Notes: generated by a model from the sequence alone, not told the origin. DNA of 10,579 nt from Candidatus Brocadiia bacterium (GCA_046538485.1 JBKHIT010000101.1:1-10579), one strand, 5' to 3'. Counted from the stretch's first letter, positions 2,946 to 10,579 are shown. Numbers and translations: made by a program.

Positions 2946-3016
2946 TTTGTACGTTTTCGAACAGTCAACCAATGGCGTCCAGTTTTACGACGTTTGATCG
3001 GAAAGGAGAATTTGCA

Positions 3017-3712
3017 GTGGCGAAGAAAACTCCCGAATCGAGTGGCGAGTGCAGGTTGTGCGGGGAGACTTTCAAATCTTCCGGAATGACATCGCACCTC
3101 AAGAGCTGTGTGAAGAAGAACCGGGAATCGAACGACCAGGAGGAAGTTGGTCTATACCACATGGTGGCGCGGGGTGGCGGGGGTCTTTTCTGGTTGCATT
3201 TTGAAGTGGTGGGCGAGGCCCCGCTGGAGGTTGTTGACGATTTTCTCCGGTCCATCTGGGTCGAATGCTGCGGGCATCTAAGCGCTTTTACGATCAACAA
3301 CCAGCGTTACTCGCCCCAGCCCATGGATTCAATGATGGCGAGAAATCCGGAGAAACCCACCGATGTTCCGATTTGCGAGGTGCTCAGCAACAATGACGAA
3401 TTCCATTATGAGTATGATTACGGGAGCACCACCCATCTTGAGATGCGGGTTGTGGACGTGCGTGAGGGTCCCCGGCCAGAACGGGCGGTTCGGGTCCTGG
3501 CCCGCAATCAGATGCCCGAGTTTGAATGCGCCGAATGTGGGGCAACCGCCACACAGATCTGCCCCACCTGCTGGGAGGATAATCTTTTTTGCGATGAGTG
3601 CGCGCCGGAGCATCCCTGCTATGATGATTACGGTGGTCTTTTGCCGTTGGTGAATTCGCCCCGGGCTGGGGTATGCGGATACACCGGCCGCTTCGGCGAC
3701 CAGGAATGGTGA
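3017..3712 (+). CDS. pRiA4b ORF3-like domain protein with N-terminal C2H-type Zn finger and C-terminal Cys-rich domain
   Basis: GTG at 3017 follows AAGGAG (3003-3008) and is preferred over ATG 2972. Motifs: CRLC..HLKSC; ECCGHLSAF and FHYEYDYGS (pRiA4b ORF3-like HL-x-x-F / YxYDF/YG); CAEC..CPTC..CDEC..H; terminal NSPRAGVCGY. Confidence 0.7.
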   Translation: MAKKTPESSGECRLCGETFKSSGMTSHLKSCVKKNRESNDQEEVGLYHMVARGGGGLFWLHFEVVGEAPLEVVDDFLRSIWVECCGHLSAFTINNQRYSPQPMDSMMARNPEKPTDVPICEVLSNNDEFHYEYDYGSTTHLEMRVVDVREGPRPERAVRVLARNQMPEFECAECGATATQICPTCWEDNLFCDECAPEHPCYDDYGGLLPLVNSPRAGVCGYTGRFGDQEW

Positions 3713-3785: not shown

Positions 3786-3817
3786 TTGCTGCATCTTACG
3801 GATGCAGGCTATATAAA
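3786..3817 (+). promoter_or_regulatory. Candidate promoter with operator-like palindrome upstream of the oxidoreductase
   Basis: TTGCTG (3786-3791) and TATATAAA (3810-3817) bracket the inverted repeat CTGCATC-N5-GATGCAG (3789-3807) in an AT-rich intergenic gap. Confidence 0.3.
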
Positions 3818-3980
3818 ACGGCGCATGCCGTTCGGGCGTAAGAATTTACAACAACAAAAAGTGTTCACAATTTCCGGCCAGTGCTACTGTGCCGGAAGAT
3901 GTCTGTATCTTCTTTATGAAATAGGCGGTTCAACCAGCGGGAGAGCTTTGAATTTAGAGTGACTGGAGTGGAGAGAATTT

Positions 3981-4985: not shown

Positions 4986-5279
4986 GGGCCGCGCGCGATT
5001 TTGGCTGCGAAATGGGTCTTGTTGAATCTTGACTCTGCTTTCTGCTGAGGCCGGGGCTTTTCTCCGGGGCGGCAAACTTTCTAACCCACGGAGTCTTACG
5101 GTGGCCAGCCGGCCAGCCGATCTATCATGACCCAGAAGGGCCGACCTTTCAGGGCGCCATTGAGCGGGTGGGTGTGTGCTGCTCGGCGAGGCAGGTCGAT
5201 TTTGTGATGGGGATTGGTCTGGATCCACTCGACTGCCCAGTTCCGGCGTCGCCCGTTATCATCGCCTTTAAGCGGTCTC

Positions 5280-5432
5280 CCACCACCCGTTGTCCCCGGA
5301 AAATCATCTCCGCCGACCTGGCACCAGATGTTTAATCCTCTGCCATCTTGTCTGTTCTCCCGCAGTAATTCTTTAAAATCCCCCCTTCAGACGGTAAAAT
5401 GTCCCTATGATTTCTGCCATGAGAGAGGCCGG
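5280..5432 (+). repeat. Dispersed repeat copy 1 (block A 5280-5309 plus core 5354-5432) containing a sigma70-like promoter
   Basis: Block A matches 9867-9896 at 28/30. The last 70 nt of the core match copy 2 at 62/70 and copy 3 at 56/70 (hand alignment). TTTAAA 5372-5377, 17-nt spacer, TAAAAT 5395-5400, ATG 5407. Confidence 0.9.
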
Positions 5433-5550
5433 CTCGGTCGGCGGCGCATTGAACTCGCCCCGGTGGAGAAGGACGAGGAGAGCACATGGCGCGCACAGGA
5501 GGTATCGCCGCCTTTACAGTTGATTTAAGGAGGGTGAAAATCGCTTCTAA

Positions 5551-7537
5551 CCTGACTTTCCTACTTAGGATAGTGCAAATGTTGTAAACTGTTTACTGTA
5601 TATGGTTTCGGATGAGCAATGGCGTATTACCCCCAGGCCATTACTTCCCCTATCTCCAGCGCCTTGGCCAGGCGAAGCTGACGCTTGGACATACGGCTGT
5701 TGGTCAGGCGCCCTGCCCCGCGTTTTTTGTAGTGCTCCGGATAAATCAGCGCTACCTCTTTGATCCCGCTCAGTTCCTCAAGGAGCTTCGGCACCGACAG
5801 CTCCTCTCCAGCCTCATGGGCGACTTTCCGCATCAGCCGCACCAGCGTCAGTGCCAGCACACAGTAAAGCCCATGCACCCTCAGCTTCTGGTCGGTCCAG
5901 TGCCAGGCCGGCTGCCAGCGTAAAAAATCGGTGCCTTTCATGTTCTTGAAAGTCTCCTCGATGCGCGCCAGCTGCCGGTAGGTGCGCACCACCTCCTGAG
6001 GCTCCCACTCCAGCTGATCGGTCACCAAAACCGTCCGCCCCAGCCTGCGCCTGCCCAGCTTCGCCAGGCGTTGGTGATTCACCTGGTAGTGAAGCGTGGG
6101 GATCTTTCCTTTCTTGCCCTTCACATCGGTCTGAATCACCTCTGAGAGATACTGCCCGGACAGTATTTTCCTGACCTTCCCCTTCGTCGACTCCGCCGTC
6201 GGACGTTTTCCCCGGCCACCTCCCTGAGCCCTGTTCTGGAGGCTCCTCTGGAGCTGCGCCAGGTCCTTCTGGCATTTGACCATCTGACGGGTGATGCTGT
6301 CGAGCTGCTGAGTGTAGAGGCTCTCGCTGTAGGTGAGCACCACCTGGCAGTCCTTTGACCACAGCTGCACCGGGAAGCTCTGTGCCCGCGTTCCGGGCAC
6401 CCCCTCCAGGGAAGCCAGATCCTCCACCGGTGTGGCGAAGATCTCCGGAAAGTAGTTTGAGGGCACTGAGCACACGAACTGCACCTGGCTTGCCGCCAGC
6501 TGTTCCATCACATCCTCGGCCATGCATCCCCTGTCGCATACCAGGGTGGCGGGTGTCTGATCGCCCAGCAGCGCCCTGTAACGTCTTGTGAGATTGCGCA
6601 CGGCCTCCGGGAAGACCGTCAGATCGTTCAGGTTGCCCGCATAGACTCTGTGCAGCAGCGGCACCTGGAAGGCGCGGCTGGCCATAAGGGACAGACCGAC
6701 CTGACGCAGGTCGCTCCTTTTCTGCTTGTTGCGCCCACGCTGAGCCAAGTGGTTACGCGCATTTGTGGAGGCGATGAAGGTGAAAAAATTCGTGGTGTCG
6801 AAAAGCAAAACGTCGGTCTGGACGCCAAACTCCTCCCCGATCCCCTCCAGCAGCCGCTCCTGGATCTGCATTATGTGCTCCTGGTCGATCCTGTCCATAT
6901 GATCCCAGAACCGCTGGCTGCTGAACGCCTTCTTTTTGAAGCCCCAGAGCCGGCGCAGGATGGTGGACTCATACCACTGCCCGATCTCCACCTTGCTGCA
7001 TGGGGCGAGGGCCCGGTTGAGGGCGGCCAGGACCATGTAGTGGCCCACGCTGGGACCCTGGTTGCGTTTGGGAACAATCTCATCGATCAGCTCCAGGAGC
7101 CCCAGACGCCGCGCGATACCCAGCAGCGCAGCGACCCCTCCGGCCTCAAAAAGGACCGTCTCCTTTGGGGTGGCCGGTTCGGTGGCCTCCATTCTCTCAA
7201 TGATGCGATCAACGGTGCCGAGGTATTTCTGATAGACCACTCGGGGTTTTCCGTCCACGCGTTTGCACTGAGAGATGTAGTAGTAGGGGCGTCCCTTTTT
7301 GAATTTCTTGGTGACAGAAGCCATATGTGTCTCCTTTCTGGCTCAGAGGGTAATACATATGGCAGGCCAAAGTCCAGCAGAATCTTTAGACTGCTTTTCA
7401 ACGCGCCTATAGGCGCTTTGATCTGAAGCGAGCATGCATCTGGTAGGGTAATACAACTACAGAAAACGTATCCCCAAGGCAGCCAATCAGTTACAATTCA
7501 GAAGCCCCCTGAATTTGCGCTAAGTCGTAAAGTCAGG
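5551..7537 (-). mobile_element. Complete IS1634-family insertion sequence, 1987 bp
   Basis: Terminal IRs CCTGACTTTCCTACTTAG (5551-5568) and the reverse complement of 7520-7537, CCTGACTTTACGACTTAG (16/18). Flanking direct repeat CTAA at 5547-5550 and 7538-7541. Single intact transposase ORF. Confidence 0.92.
5627..7324 (-). CDS. IS1634-family DDE transposase
   Basis: 565 aa; N-terminal GRPYYYISQCKRVDGKPR..KYLG typical of the family; DDE triad LLFDTTN / LVCDRG / YRQLARIEETFKNMK; QKLRVHGLYCVLA; AAGGAG RBS 6 nt before ATG. Confidence 0.93.
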   Translation of the reverse strand: MASVTKKFKKGRPYYYISQCKRVDGKPRVVYQKYLGTVDRIIERMEATEPATPKETVLFEAGGVAALLGIARRLGLLELIDEIVPKRNQGPSVGHYMVLAALNRALAPCSKVEIGQWYESTILRRLWGFKKKAFSSQRFWDHMDRIDQEHIMQIQERLLEGIGEEFGVQTDVLLFDTTNFFTFIASTNARNHLAQRGRNKQKRSDLRQVGLSLMASRAFQVPLLHRVYAGNLNDLTVFPEAVRNLTRRYRALLGDQTPATLVCDRGCMAEDVMEQLAASQVQFVCSVPSNYFPEIFATPVEDLASLEGVPGTRAQSFPVQLWSKDCQVVLTYSESLYTQQLDSITRQMVKCQKDLAQLQRSLQNRAQGGGRGKRPTAESTKGKVRKILSGQYLSEVIQTDVKGKKGKIPTLHYQVNHQRLAKLGRRRLGRTVLVTDQLEWEPQEVVRTYRQLARIEETFKNMKGTDFLRWQPAWHWTDQKLRVHGLYCVLALTLVRLMRKVAHEAGEELSVPKLLEELSGIKEVALIYPEHYKKRGAGRLTNSRMSKRQLRLAKALEIGEVMAWG

Positions 7538-7749
7538 CTAAGTAGTTTTTATGGTCCTTCTCTATTAAATTGGTCGCAGCCCCTTATGCCTTTAAAAAAT
7601 CCGCCGTTGTGTTTGTCGTTTTGTTGCTTAAGTCGAAGAGCGATTTGTCCAATTCACGCTGAACCAGTACATTTTTTGGAGGGTAAACTACATACTAATT
7701 CCCGAAGAGGAAATGTCCAATTCCGTCTGAAGCATAACAGTATTCGCGC

Positions 7750-9324
7750 CTATTCAACGCGTTTGAGTAGGTTCCGGGCATACCGAGCCTTTTCGAGCTC
7801 TTTCTCAAGTGCGCCCATCTTTTCCTGGTAAGTTGCGATATATTGTTGCGTCAAAGGGCCAATTGCGTGCATTTTTTCTCTGCATTCGTTGACCTTCCTC
7901 TTAGCGGCGGCGTTATTCCTCTCAGCCATTGGCTTATACATTCGCAATGTTTTTTCGGCCTCAACGTATTCGTCCACAGGGACCTGTTCGGCTTGTCTTA
8001 TTTTGCGTTTTAGGTTACCCACTCGTTGCACAGCAGCATTAAGGAATCGACTCCCAATTCCGAGCTTGTAGTGCCTGACTGTCCGCTGGGCACCAAGCAC
8101 ATTTTCATATTTAACTGTCCCCTCGTAAGTGGCTAATCTTGGAACTGAGATCTTTTGGCCGTCTGCGAGCCCGTTTGTTTGCAACCCAGAAACGAGAATA
8201 GTTTTATCAGCAAATCCATGAGAGTCAAGATGAGAAAGCAACATCTTGTCAGCGTCAAGAATCTGCAACACCCGGAAAGTACCGGGTAATATTCCTACAT
8301 CACAGTTGGCGTCCGTCACTTCTGGCATATCACCCTGGCGCCGACACCCCGATACAAACAAGGTGGCCTTTCTCCATTCAAAGCTCCCAGCAGGGATTTG
8401 CATAGTTTTGTTCAATGTCTCGCTTAACTTCTTTCTATGCTCCTTGTTGCGCCGTTCCTTGTTTTCCCTTTTTACCTCTGCCACCAAGCTCAACGCCAAT
8501 TCCGTCCCCTGTTGATTCAAAACTGTGTACCCGAATTGCAATACTCTCGGTGTTAAGTTGCCTTTTTGAAAAGCATCCAACTCCTCCCGATCTAAACCTT
8601 GCAGGGCCTTGCGAATGAAAGATGGGTCACGCGCATGGCGGATTTTGCGCCGCAAATTGCGAGCGGGTTGGAGTTTTGTGGCGTTTTTCGTTTTCAGGGC
8701 TAGCTCAAGCTTTTCACCGGCGGCATCAATGTCACCCGCTTTTAAACTTTGGCGTGCTTCTCCAACCAATCCGGCAACCTTTGAATTAGCTTTTTCCTCC
8801 AGTTTTTCTTGCTTGGCTTTTTGTACTGCATCAACTTTTTCCCGGACTTGGCGAAGGAGCGAGCGTGCCGGTTCAAGATCCGTTGCGCCTTCGACCTTTA
8901 GCGCACTCCCTAATTTTTCTTGAGCCTCTTGGAGGTTCCCTTTTCGGTACCGCTTCCGGGCCTGCTCCACCAATGAGGAGACTTTTGCATTTGCCCTCTG
9001 TCGCTGTTCTCGGAGTGCAGCCCTGGTAGAAAAACCTATTGCAGCAGAGAACATGAGCAAGATGGCGACCATTCCGAAACCTGCAATCTTGATTCCCGTC
9101 CAGATTGGTTTGTCGGGATTAAAACGCAACATTTTGCGAGGAAAGCTGTTCACAAAGGGTACGGGAACCAGGAGACAAAGTATCAAGAGGAAGAGCCCAG
9201 ATATGAGTGGAAGTACCGGGAAATAACCGGCACATATCAATAAGGCCAAAATAGCGAAAGGAATCCAATATCTCGGGCTGTGCTTCTTTTTAGAGTTCTG
9301 TGTGCAGTCGATTTTATTCTCCAT
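7750..9324 (-). CDS. Hypothetical membrane-anchored protein: ~3 N-terminal TM segments, two TPR-like helical repeats, coiled coils and a beta-rich C-terminal domain
   Basis: Long uninterrupted ORF (524 aa from ATG 9324; 530 aa from GTG 9342). Hydrophobic stretches at about aa 26-64 and 81-104 (530-aa numbering); visible 51-aa duplication; K/E/R-rich helices. More AT-rich than the left-hand genes by eye. Confidence 0.85.
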   Translation of the reverse strand: MENKIDCTQNSKKKHSPRYWIPFAILALLICAGYFPVLPLISGLFLLILCLLVPVPFVNSFPRKMLRFNPDKPIWTGIKIAGFGMVAILLMFSAAIGFSTRAALREQRQRANAKVSSLVEQARKRYRKGNLQEAQEKLGSALKVEGATDLEPARSLLRQVREKVDAVQKAKQEKLEEKANSKVAGLVGEARQSLKAGDIDAAGEKLELALKTKNATKLQPARNLRRKIRHARDPSFIRKALQGLDREELDAFQKGNLTPRVLQFGYTVLNQQGTELALSLVAEVKRENKERRNKEHRKKLSETLNKTMQIPAGSFEWRKATLFVSGCRRQGDMPEVTDANCDVGILPGTFRVLQILDADKMLLSHLDSHGFADKTILVSGLQTNGLADGQKISVPRLATYEGTVKYENVLGAQRTVRHYKLGIGSRFLNAAVQRVGNLKRKIRQAEQVPVDEYVEAEKTLRMYKPMAERNNAAAKRKVNECREKMHAIGPLTQQYIATYQEKMGALEKELEKARYARNLLKRVE

Positions 9325-9513
9325 AGGCGGACCTTTTCTCACCTCTCGTTATTTGGCTTCCTGAATGAATCGCTGCAATGTGCCGTCAGGGGATAAATGG
9401 CTCCATCTACTATGATCCTAACCAAGAATCAATACCTGAGTCAAAAAAGCGAGGCAATTAGCGGGCCGAACACTACGGAAAGTGCTTCCCCGCAATTCCC
9501 TAAAAGCCGTGAA

Positions 9514-9772
9514 GGGGACGTACCATCGCATTTTCTTATTCAGGCAGTTGATACAAAGGCTAAGTGGCCTTCCAGAGGATGTTGTTGTCGTATCCCGTTC
9601 GCTGACAAGCACTTGCTATGGCACGCTACCAGCACTGCCGTTCCCCCCAGTAATCCTTTAAAATCCGCCCCCCAGCCGGTAAAATGCCCCTATGATTTCT
9701 ACCATGAGAGAGACCGGGGGCGGTAGAATGCGAGCAGGAGTTTATTGGGCTAAGGGGGACGTACCATCGCAT
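9514..9772 (+). repeat. Perfect 18-bp direct repeat GGGGACGTACCATCGCAT (9514-9531 and 9755-9772)
   Basis: Exact match read from the sequence; both copies are preceded by AA(G); starts are 241 bp apart. Confidence 0.9.
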
Positions 9773-9812
9773 GTCGCTGCAAAATAACAGGATACGACAA
9801 TAAACACCCTCT
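9574..9812. repeat. Imperfect ~26-bp inverted repeat pair (9574-9599 and 9786-9812)
   Basis: AGAGGATGTTG-TTGTCGTATCCCGTT versus the reverse complement of the right arm, AGAGGGTGTTTATTGTCGTATCCTGTT; exact 11-bp core TTGTCGTATCC. Confidence 0.8.
9640..9717 (+). repeat. Dispersed repeat copy 2 (core only) containing a sigma70-like promoter
   Basis: TTTAAA 9657-9662, 17-nt spacer, TAAAAT 9680-9685, ATG 9692; 62/70 to copy 1 and 56/70 to copy 3. Confidence 0.9.
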
Positions 9813-9866
9813 CAGAGGGGCTTACACGCGATTTTCGGGGGGTGTTTTCGGCCTGTAACCAATTCT

Positions 9867-10031
9867 CCACCACCCGTTGCCGCCGGAAAATCATCTTCCA
9901 CTCGCTATCAGGTCGCGTGATCCCAGAAGTTCATTGCCATGTCATATTGTCCGTTCTCCCGCAGTAATTCTTTAAAACCCGCCCCCCAGCCGGTAAACTA
10001 TTTCCATGCTTTCTGCCACCAGACAGGCCGG
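9867..10031 (+). repeat. Dispersed repeat copy 3 (block A 9867-9896 plus core 9953-10031) containing a sigma70-like promoter
   Basis: TTTAAA 9971-9976, 17-nt spacer, TAAACT 9994-9999, ATG 10006 in frame with the downstream long ORF. Confidence 0.9.
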
Positions 10032-10579
10032 GGTTGGAGTGGATTTTGGCATGGAGGCTGTTCGGACCGACACCACCTCGACAGACGGCAGTTGCGGAAC
10101 CTGCGGCTCCTCCCCGGATGCCGACTACGAGCCACCCTCCCTCGGCAGCACCCGGGCGATATCGGCTTCAGAAGCTGGAAACATCCACAAAACCATCGAG
10201 CGCACATTCACAGTCATCCAGGACCGCATCGAAGCGACCGTCGAGGGCGAAAATGAATGGCAGGCTCTGGGCGATATGACCTTCTACCCGGGCGTTGAGT
10301 ATGAGTTCCGGCTGGTGGTCGAGGCCGGAGCGGAGGGCGAGCTTCAGCCCGATTCCCGCCAGTGGTATGTGGACAGGTGGGTGCGGGAGCGAGAGAGCGA
10401 CCCCGGCGATGCGCCGACGTTCTCAGAGCCTCAGAAGAAACTCTGCCTCGCGCTCGGCGAGACGGGCGATACTTTCACTAATGCCTTCGAGAAAGCCGGT
10501 GATTACAACCTCCGCTGTCGTTATACCCACGAGGAGCAGAGTTTTGATATGGATGTGGAGGTGGAGGTGAGCGGAATTG
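10006..10579 (+). CDS. Partial (3'-truncated by window) acidic protein with an Ig/PKD-like beta-sandwich motif
   Basis: Absent from the ORF track because there is no stop before the window end. Open for 191 codons from ATG 10006 (176 from the alternative ATG 10051): ..MEAVRTDTTSTDGSCGTCGSS..FYPGVEYEFRLVVEAG..QWYVD..GDTFTNAFEKAGDYNLRCRYTHEEQSFDMDVEVEVSGI. Codon third positions are GC-biased. Confidence 0.75.
   Translation, partial: MLSATRQAGVGVDFGMEAVRTDTTSTDGSCGTCGSSPDADYEPPSLGSTRAISASEAGNIHKTIERTFTVIQDRIEATVEGENEWQALGDMTFYPGVEYEFRLVVEAGAEGELQPDSRQWYVDRWVRERESDPGDAPTFSEPQKKLCLALGETGDTFTNAFEKAGDYNLRCRYTHEEQSFDMDVEVEVSGI

Follow-up and report, generated by a model that had tools for sequence, protein, structure and literature searches.

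A block of about 155 nucleotides (nt), here called P, occurs three times in direct orientation in the complete 10,579-bp contig C103 of a draft genome of the uncultured Candidatus Brocadiia bacterium (GCA_046538485.1 JBKHIT010000101.1:1-10579; this whole stretch is referred to as the window). P is probably, with a probability that we put at roughly 0.6, the shared 5' block of a new, lineage-specific multigene family, in which each gene has its own copy with a promoter and an ATG at the expected transcription start (+1), and in which truncated genes and gene-less remnants have arisen by recombination between paralogues. Read in this way, the window copies are one live start and two remnants, with no new genetic switch and no new mobile or recombination system. 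The genome is metagenome-derived and sulfatase-rich, with 5.19 Mb in 143 contigs and a G+C content of 54%; it is 88% complete and 4% contaminated, and its DUF1559 pseudopilin genes suggest an affiliation with the Planctomycetes-Verrucomicrobia group. Copies of P are designated A-type or B-type according to what follows them, B being a 115-nt segment, and a separate repeat of about 100 nt is called U. The three copies and the gene that begins in the last of them are as follows.

5279..5432, + strand: P copy 1, B-type; -35-like hexamer at 5372-5377, -10-like hexamer at 5395-5400, ATG at 5407-5409, ends in GGCCGG; nhmmer E = 2.3e-44
9571..9717, + strand: P copy 2, a solo remnant; -35-like hexamer at 9657-9662, -10-like hexamer at 9680-9685, ATG at 9692-9694; nhmmer E = 5e-27
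9865..10031, + strand: P copy 3, A-type; -35-like hexamer at 9971-9976, -10-like hexamer TAAACT at 9994-9999, ATG at 10006-10008; nhmmer E = 3.8e-40
10006..10578, + strand: 5' part of a family gene, 191 codons, running off the contig end; residues ~58 to 190 are the conserved domain

A preliminary description of this DNA had reported three direct copies with the arrangement TTTAAA-N17-TAAA(A/C)T-N6-ATG, and this is confirmed. The pattern TTTAAA-N17-TAAAMT-N6-ATG has exactly three matches in the window, at 5372-5409, 9657-9694 and 9971-10008, all on the + strand, and none of 200 dinucleotide-preserving shuffles of the window contains even one. In blastn comparisons of the core, copy 1 is 87% identical to copy 2 and 82% identical to copy 3 (79 nt each), and copies 2 and 3 are 81% identical over 83 nt. 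The copies form a direct repeat family, D1 (5324-5432, 9609-9717 and 9923-10031), and a second direct pair, D2 (5264-5309 and 9851-9896, 80% identical), makes copies 1 and 3 alike further upstream. The core of copy 2 (9640-9717) is well preserved and its upstream half has diverged; about 33 nt follow it, and then repeat U and copy 3. The open reading frames (ORFs) that begin at the three ATGs have the lengths previously given for them, namely 38 amino acids (aa) for the one starting at 5407, 31 aa for that at 9692 and at least 191 aa for that at 10006, which runs off the contig end.

The same core recurs across the genome. A blastn search with its 79 nt finds 16 copies on 11 contigs (E <= 2.2e-08), beyond which there are nine matches at E >= 0.25 that are noise, and an nhmmer profile of the ~155-nt block recovers the same 16 copies (E <= 5e-27), followed by 12 far weaker matches. 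Contigs C103 and C1 have three copies each, those on C1 lying within 7 kb; C139 has two, and C99, C121, C8, C12, C83, C58, C115 and C44 have one each. The copies differ by 10-20% among themselves, and all 16 share TTTAAA, the 17-nt spacer, TAAA(A/C)T and the 6 nt after it, with TAAAAT as the -10 hexamer in 15. The ATG is likewise kept in 15 copies and is replaced by ATT in one, which is a truncated copy on C83. None of the 16 has a single insertion or deletion (indel) in the interval from the -35 hexamer to GGCCGG; several occur in the upstream half.

What follows P falls into three classes: a family ORF (11 copies), segment B (four) and nothing (copy 2). In the 11 A-type copies, which include window copy 3, homology continues into ORFs beginning M(I/L)SATRQAGVG. 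In each of the 11, the ATG of P and the family ORF share one reading frame, and every copy with a continuing family ORF has the same orientation as that ORF. Similarity among the three window copies does stop at or just after GGCCGG, near the CCGG where the end of homology had been placed, but in 11 of the 16 genomic copies it carries on into genes. Four of the A-type ORFs are long, at 1291 aa (C12), 1001 aa (C115), at least 891 aa (C58, off the contig) and 529 aa (C1); two are incomplete at contig ends, at least 191 aa in the window and at least 30 aa on C1; and five are short and evidently truncated, with 97, 82, 64, 56 and 54 aa.

The window fragment of 191 aa is 88% identical to the 1291-aa paralogue on C12 over 188 aa. 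More generally, the N-terminal 190-280 aa of the paralogues are 64-88% identical by tblastn and blastp, and the remainder is either unrelated or ~35-45% identical. The proteins would consist of a short leader that varies, a beta-rich domain that is conserved (~residues 58-190) and C-terminal parts that differ greatly, with each C-terminal type apparently paired with its own exported or membrane partner gene downstream. The partner gene does co-vary with the C-terminal type, although the sample is small: a HEAT-like gene with a signal peptide comes next in three of three cases with metzincin-type C-termini (C12, a deletion derivative on C1, and C139), and a membrane-anchored gene type of ~475 aa follows both the 529-aa member on C1 and an unrelated large ORF on C115. 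The family domain is also found in a different setting on C33 (L025 620-4634), where a protein with a signal peptide, at least 1338 aa long and cut off by the contig end, carries it as residues 1202-1332. The position of this protein's long N-terminal part is occupied, in the A-type genes, by P and a leader of ~57-69 codons. The C33 contig and the window end at the same point of the domain (…EVEVSGI), which suggests that the assembly breaks where the variable parts begin.

P itself would be made up of three parts: a region upstream that carries a motif, then a sigma70-like -35/-10 pair spaced by 17 nt, and finally an ATG at the expected transcription start. In copies 1 and 2, TTTAAA-N17-TAAAAT agrees with the consensus TTGACA/TATAAT at 9 of 12 positions (the scan does not list copy 3, which has TAAACT), and the earlier comparison with sigma70 spacing gains from the 17-nt geometry being free of indels in every genomic copy. 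In the alignment of the 16 copies, variation is lowest in the columns of TTCTTTAAAA, CGGTAAA, the ATG and the codons that follow it; the spacer and the 6 nt before the ATG are variable. Nucleotide diversity (pi) is 0.21-0.24 in the upstream half and 0.09-0.20 in the core, and it is 0.07-0.13 in the first 26 nt from the predicted +1 and 0.24-0.29 in codons 13-30; the lowest values across P lie from -36 to +26. The diversity of the upstream half has no 3-nt periodicity, which marks this half as non-coding, and a minimum from -36 to +26 without codon periodicity upstream fits a promoter followed by a constrained transcript start. In codons 2-9, where there are few sites, the third position is about twice as variable as the first two.

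The A of the ATG is the seventh base after the -10 hexamer in all 16 copies, which is the usual +1 position, and an in-frame TAA inside the -10 hexamer closes the reading frame upstream of the ATG. The hexamers of P are likely to be a working promoter, a +1 at the A of the ATG is plausible, and leaderless translation from this ATG is no more than possible. Phase variation through the C-run of the spacer was considered and rejected: the run is at most 6 nt long, the 17 nt are kept in 16 of 16 copies, and no length variant is present in the contigs of four metagenome DNA runs, which were compared with the window at the level of contigs, where rare variants are hidden. The possibility that P is coding in another frame or on the opposite strand was also discarded. 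Short reverse ORFs and one ORF in the +2 frame are present, but the upstream diversity lacks a 3-nt period and, by eye, the reverse frames contain stops in most copies.

Duplication, internal deletion and recombination among the paralogues would have produced both the truncated genes and the promoter remnants that have no gene. Copy 3 would then be the start of a live gene and copy 2 a remnant from which nearly the whole gene has been deleted. Copy 1 would belong to a four-copy subclass with the same promoter and first nine codons, after which B begins; here B has been cut by an insertion sequence (IS). The elements that bear on this subclass, and on the surroundings of copy 2, are listed below, with the diverged P-like blocks of other contigs at the end.

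5433..5550, + strand: segment B, ~115 nt, with a 1-nt insertion near 5513 in the window copy
5551..7537, - strand: IS, with a 565-aa DDE transposase ORF at 5627-7324 (minus; PF01609 DDE_Tnp_1, E = 4.9e-08); terminal inverted repeats begin CCTGACTTT
9582..9625, no strand assigned: left arm of an inverted repeat bracketing copy 2, U-like and reversed; the right arm, 9760-9803, lies inside U (44 nt, 70% complementary)
9750..9866, + strand: repeat U, structured and intergenic, ~100 nt, beginning GGGGACGTACCATCGCA, with a conserved hairpin (blastn and alignment)
L019 (C131), L020 (C84) 187-350 and L021 (C91) ~1000-1220: diverged P-like blocks with the hairpin UCGCCCGGAGG...CCGGCGA

The four B-type copies (window copy 1 and those on C99, C121 and C8) switch to B directly after GGCCGG. 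By blastn, these are the only full-length occurrences of B in the genome, all of them behind P and mutually 96-100% identical; one other match, on C92, is a partial one of 43 nt. The extra base near 5513 is missing in other contigs. At the point where the window copy meets the IS, the three copies outside the window run on as ...CTAAGCCCTCTGAGAGG. The IS is flanked by CTAA on both sides (5547-5550 and 7538-7541) and cuts the tail of the B unit. In run X3 the depth is 0-0.32 over the IS and there is none at 8473-9531, with patches between, so that the part from the IS to 9531 looks strain-variable; the strain in this run seems to lack the IS and much of 7767-9531.

The sequences behind B differ between the four loci, and there is no common downstream gene. 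The next gene in the same direction is a small metalloprotease-like ORF on C121, a DUF1559 pseudopilin gene on C99 and a set of small ORFs on C8; in the window, the IS and then a convergent gene follow. On C121 a stand-alone ORF of 215 aa lies just downstream of the P-B unit (L006 4004-4648, minus), with the motif HEISHALGI and weak Matrixin/Reprolysin matches, and may be an orphan metalloprotease module. By eye, B contains a putative 13-codon ORF behind a strong Shine-Dalgarno-like run. Several explanations of B itself were tried and rejected. As a structured small RNA, the 211 nt that begin directly behind the ATG and extend as far as the inverted U fold no better than shuffles (z = +1.26). 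A CsrA sponge, considered for the several GGA motifs, lacks its counterpart, as a CsrA gene was not found in the 88%-complete genome. Nor is B the terminus of an element that integrated at CCGG as a specific target site, given that the displaced remainder of a family gene is not present on C99, C121 or C8 by tblastn.

At the three diverged loci (on C131, C84 and C91), a U-like repeat leads into the upstream half of P and this into a diverged core, with TTAAAA/TATAAT and an ATG 4 nt later. A conserved stretch of 50-125 nt that includes a hairpin comes next. In two of these cases the neighbouring gene is convergent, and it is possible that the unit is a small RNA gene. Pieces of the upstream-half motif of P also precede other, unrelated genes or sequences. 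On C20 (L023 1844-2039), a fragment of the motif adjoins a partial match to group II intron domains D1-D4, which scores 39 bits against a gathering threshold of 49.

At least 17 copies of repeat U, full or partial, are present in the genome, and many of these are not near P. Often the repeat begins immediately after a stop codon, as it does after two successive Fic-like genes on C95 (L024 2007-2108 and 3684-3786). Its hairpin is maintained despite sequence change, with substitutions that look compensatory (fold z = -1.9). U precedes P in several copies, and an inverted U follows B on C99 and C121. It could be a terminator, an insulator or a cassette-boundary element.

In Rfam searches there was nothing on P, B or U in the window at E <= 1, nor on P, P2, B or U in seven related loci at E <= 0.1, and no family for the diverged P-like units; P thus corresponds to no Rfam family. 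The only matches in the window and the seven loci are a tRNA, a group II intron piece elsewhere and a 21-nt end of tmRNA. The last of these is at 10559-10579 of the window (minus), where it resembles the 3' end of the tmRNA model with 15 bits against a gathering threshold of 47 (E = 0.008); it lies inside the family ORF at the contig end and is almost certainly a chance match.

Several observations weigh against P being simply the 5' block of a gene family. The working promoter and the +1 at the ATG are predictions from the geometry of the sequence, and a search of sequencing runs listed no RNA run that contains this DNA. Five of the 16 copies of P are unattached to a family gene. The four B-type copies grow more alike towards the end of the unit, with identities of 47-84% in the upstream half, 87-91% in the core and 96-100% in B, and a B that is better conserved than its promoter is something that the simple decay of a gene remnant does not predict. 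Given the diverged P-like blocks and the recurring motif, P may be part of a wider family of cis elements. The effector-like part of the interpretation is weak: Pfam detects no delivery domain in the family proteins, and the only domain signal is a metzincin-like motif near the cut-off (Reprolysin_4, 21.6 bits against 22), which lies at the C-terminus of the C12 member as HEIGHCFGLLH, of the form HExxHxxGxxH. The other members and relatives scanned (those on C115 and C58, the window fragment, the 529-aa protein on C1, and P0005-P0007) match no Pfam family, and the AlphaFold model of the 191-aa fragment, with a pLDDT of 44, is too poor to use. Finally, in a draft metagenome genome of this completeness and contamination the copy number of P is a lower bound, and some junctions around the copies could be choices of the assembler.

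Rival readings start from several of these same features. P might be a conserved 5' untranslated leader, or a regulatory RNA or DNA site, with transcription beginning further upstream and translation at a later ATG, although we regard this as rather unlikely. A second in-frame ATG does exist, at codon 13 in nine of the ten A-type copies compared and at codon 16 in copy 3, but only three of the ten have a GGAG, GAGG or AGGA 4-mer 5-10 nt before it (by eye). The host as a whole speaks for such a leader. In a survey of the first ATG of 3775 ORFs of at least 200 aa, in which the starts are crude, Shine-Dalgarno 4-mers peak at 10-12% at 7-8 nt against a background of ~1%, and TANNNT 5-8 nt before the ATG is not enriched (0.7-0.9% against ~1%), which together indicate that leaderless starts are not habitual in this organism. 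The conservation of the upstream half of P, and the recurrence of its motif elsewhere, agree with a leader as well. A leader does not, however, account for the -35, the -10 and the ATG being the least variable columns while the spacer varies, for the richer third-position change of codons 2-9, or for the in-frame TAA within the -10, which shuts the frame that would lead into the ATG from upstream. A different and quite improbable proposal makes P a dedicated expression cassette, with upstream motif, promoter and AUG at +1, that defines a small regulon. This would comprise the gene family, a 115-nt RNA B (four copies) and the diverged short hairpin RNA (three), with the B RNAs acting as decoys or regulators of 5'-end recognition. 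The B transcripts would then share their first 26 nt with the family mRNAs, and the step that they target might be, for example, leaderless initiation or a 5'-binding factor. The proposal is kept in consideration by the conservation of B beyond that of its promoter, by the lack of a common downstream gene and by the convergent neighbours of two of the three diverged units.

The remaining alternatives concern mobility and assembly. The preliminary description had seen in P a reusable module for cassette swapping or promoter donation. What stands of this is that a promoter-like block is joined to more than one downstream sequence (11 genes, four segments B and, in one case, nothing); cassette swapping and promoter donation are not borne out. 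P is mainly the 5' end of one paralogous family, so that most copies share their descent with the gene behind them, and no tyrosine or serine recombinase is encoded on any of the 11 P-bearing contigs of the draft. It is unlikely that P is a mobile, promoter-carrying miniature element, akin to a miniature inverted-repeat transposable element (MITE) or a cassette, that spreads alone and donates a promoter and start codon. The three kinds of downstream sequence would suit such an element, as would the P-like blocks ahead of unrelated units, the presence of P and a leader, in 11 A-type genes, where the C33 protein has its long N-terminal part, and the position of the P-B unit between U and inverted U on C99 and C121 and of copy 2 between inverted U-like arms. 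U is independent of P, however, being found behind other genes where P is absent, and U copies on either side do not in themselves mark out an element. No terminal inverted repeats belonging to P were found, those present being copies of U; target-site duplications and constant ends were not seen by eye, no systematic search having been made; the left limit of homology varies between copies; no transposase is regularly nearby; and the pattern of P is absent from JGI metagenome contigs and GTDB species genomes. The break at CCGG, formerly read as a recombination junction, is not general either: it belongs to the B junction of four copies and to copy 2, a truncated copy on C139 breaks 14 nt further on, and other truncated copies break elsewhere. 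A recombination site for phase or antigenic variation, of the Mycoplasma vpma/vsp/vsa or shufflon type, at which genes would be carried into and out of an expression site by a site-specific recombinase, is very unlikely. In its favour are a 5' block common to genes that otherwise vary, the tandem arrangement of P on C1 (three copies in 7 kb), on C139 (two) and in the window (three), and the inverted U arms near some copies, but hexamers in 16 of 16 copies leave no single expression site with silent promoterless copies, and P points in the direction of every continuing family ORF. The recombinases of the genome lie on other contigs (tyrosine-type, PF00589, on C86, on C84 at 113 kb and on C101; serine-type, PF00239, on C23). 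Inverted or swapped P joints were not seen in the contigs of the four metagenome runs, in which the joints look like cross-mapping of paralogues, with extra letters or short sides. That the repeats or junctions are chimeric joins made by the metagenome assembler is hardly credible. Many P copies do lie near contig ends, and the Logan contigs of the best-matching run break at them; yet the copies differ by too much to be one collapsed repeat, three of them stand within one contig, and in an independent run, X2, one contig reaches from unique upstream DNA through P copy 1 into the first part of B with no mismatch.

The reading of P as the 5' block of a lineage-specific family can also be set beside its distribution. 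By DNA search, P has a match in one of 41 genomes, the genome itself, with 40 relatives negative, and the family has none in those 40 relatives. A pattern of 25 specified bases finds 0 stretches in the JGI and GTDB collections, from which records of or near this genome may be omitted. A profile of the family matches one of 401 genomes of the phylum, again the genome itself, with 400 others sampled negative, and relatives of the family were not found in JGI metagenome contigs. Among 1.84 billion representative proteins, the 191-residue query finds eight at E <= 0.001: the query, two paralogues of the same genome, one 81%-identical fragment, two foreign proteins that are 48-50% identical, and two weak, repeat-rich matches. 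One of the foreign relatives ends in HExxHxxGxxH, and neither of them covers residues 1-57. A near-length, word-indexed protein search returned two paralogues of the same genome and nothing else.

Known systems resemble parts of this arrangement. Leaderless mRNAs include those of lambda cI and Tn1721 tetR and are common in Actinobacteria, Deinococcus and archaea. The P copies are like them in having the ATG 6 nt after a -10-like hexamer, with no room for a Shine-Dalgarno site, and in using AUG, not GUG or UUG, in 15 of 16 cases; the host genome differs in its clear Shine-Dalgarno use and its lack of a general leaderless signature. A limited literature search on leaderless mRNAs, Planctomycetes and transcription start sites turned up only an unrelated study of Sinorhizobium. 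Short dispersed repeats that bear promoters are known from the Correia elements of Neisseria and from the outward promoters of IS ends. P, too, is a short dispersed repeat that would be able to supply a promoter, and some of its copies are bracketed by inverted repeats. It differs in having no terminal inverted repeats of its own and no visible target duplications, in its restriction to one genome and in the attachment of most copies to one family.

The closest analogue in gene layout is provided by polymorphic toxin loci. These have a conserved N-terminal region, a hypervariable C-terminal region, a cognate gene directly downstream, extra modules in tandem and truncated copies, and their orphan modules usually lack a promoter and start codon. 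The P family resembles them in its conserved N-terminal region, unrelated C-termini and co-varying downstream gene. It differs in that each module has its own P block, in that Pfam finds no Rhs/YD, PAAR, TPS, LXG or other delivery domain, and in that the downstream partners are large (~400-475 aa). Toxin loci with orphan modules include Rhs, CDI CdiA-CT/CdiI and Neisseria MafB (10.1101/2025.05.08.652813, PMC3967940, PMC4287609). In form, the closest analogue is the Mycoplasma vpma/vsp/vsa type of locus, in which, according to one account, otherwise very different genes in arrays share a conserved 5' untranslated region and N-terminal coding part, a single promoter serves each locus, recombination takes place at sites between -1 and -72, and DNA is inverted by a tyrosine recombinase encoded next to the locus (Xer1, Mbr or HvsR; PMC2268961). 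The P family likewise has a conserved 5' block, a conserved N-terminal part and arrays. In contrast, promoter-like hexamers are present on every copy here, P-bearing contigs lack a recombinase, and the conserved N-terminus is not a lipoprotein signal peptide.

The rest of the window contains further features that stand apart from P. Convergent with copy 1 is the following ORF:

7750..9342, - strand: 530-aa ORF with predicted membrane segments and a coiled-coil-like repeat; no Pfam family

An ORF of 246 aa at 2972-3712, with a PRiA4_ORF3 domain (plasmid pRiA4b ORF-3-like) and cysteine clusters, is placed between a sulfatase gene and a Gfo/Idh/MocA oxidoreductase gene. A dispersed repeat of 62 nt at 3789-3850 contains two small hairpins (CTGCATC..GATGCAG and ACGGCGCATGCCGT) and has 45 further blastn matches on many contigs. 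Its summed depth is very high, with many differing loose ends on both sides in all four runs, and it looks like an intergenic repeat of the repetitive extragenic palindromic (REP) or MITE type.

The family of large proteins that begins at P appears to be previously undescribed, and its layout resembles that of polymorphic toxin/immunity arrays; that its members are effector-like is a weak suggestion. Segment B is the one piece that could hide something new. The P repeats explain the assembly breaks at these loci of the organism. To our knowledge, very little is known about promoters and translation starts in uncultured organisms of this kind, and the ATGs of P are a clear target for 5' end mapping, even if the practical gain would be modest. 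If P is a working promoter, the genome would offer sixteen natural variants of a single promoter and start-codon unit.

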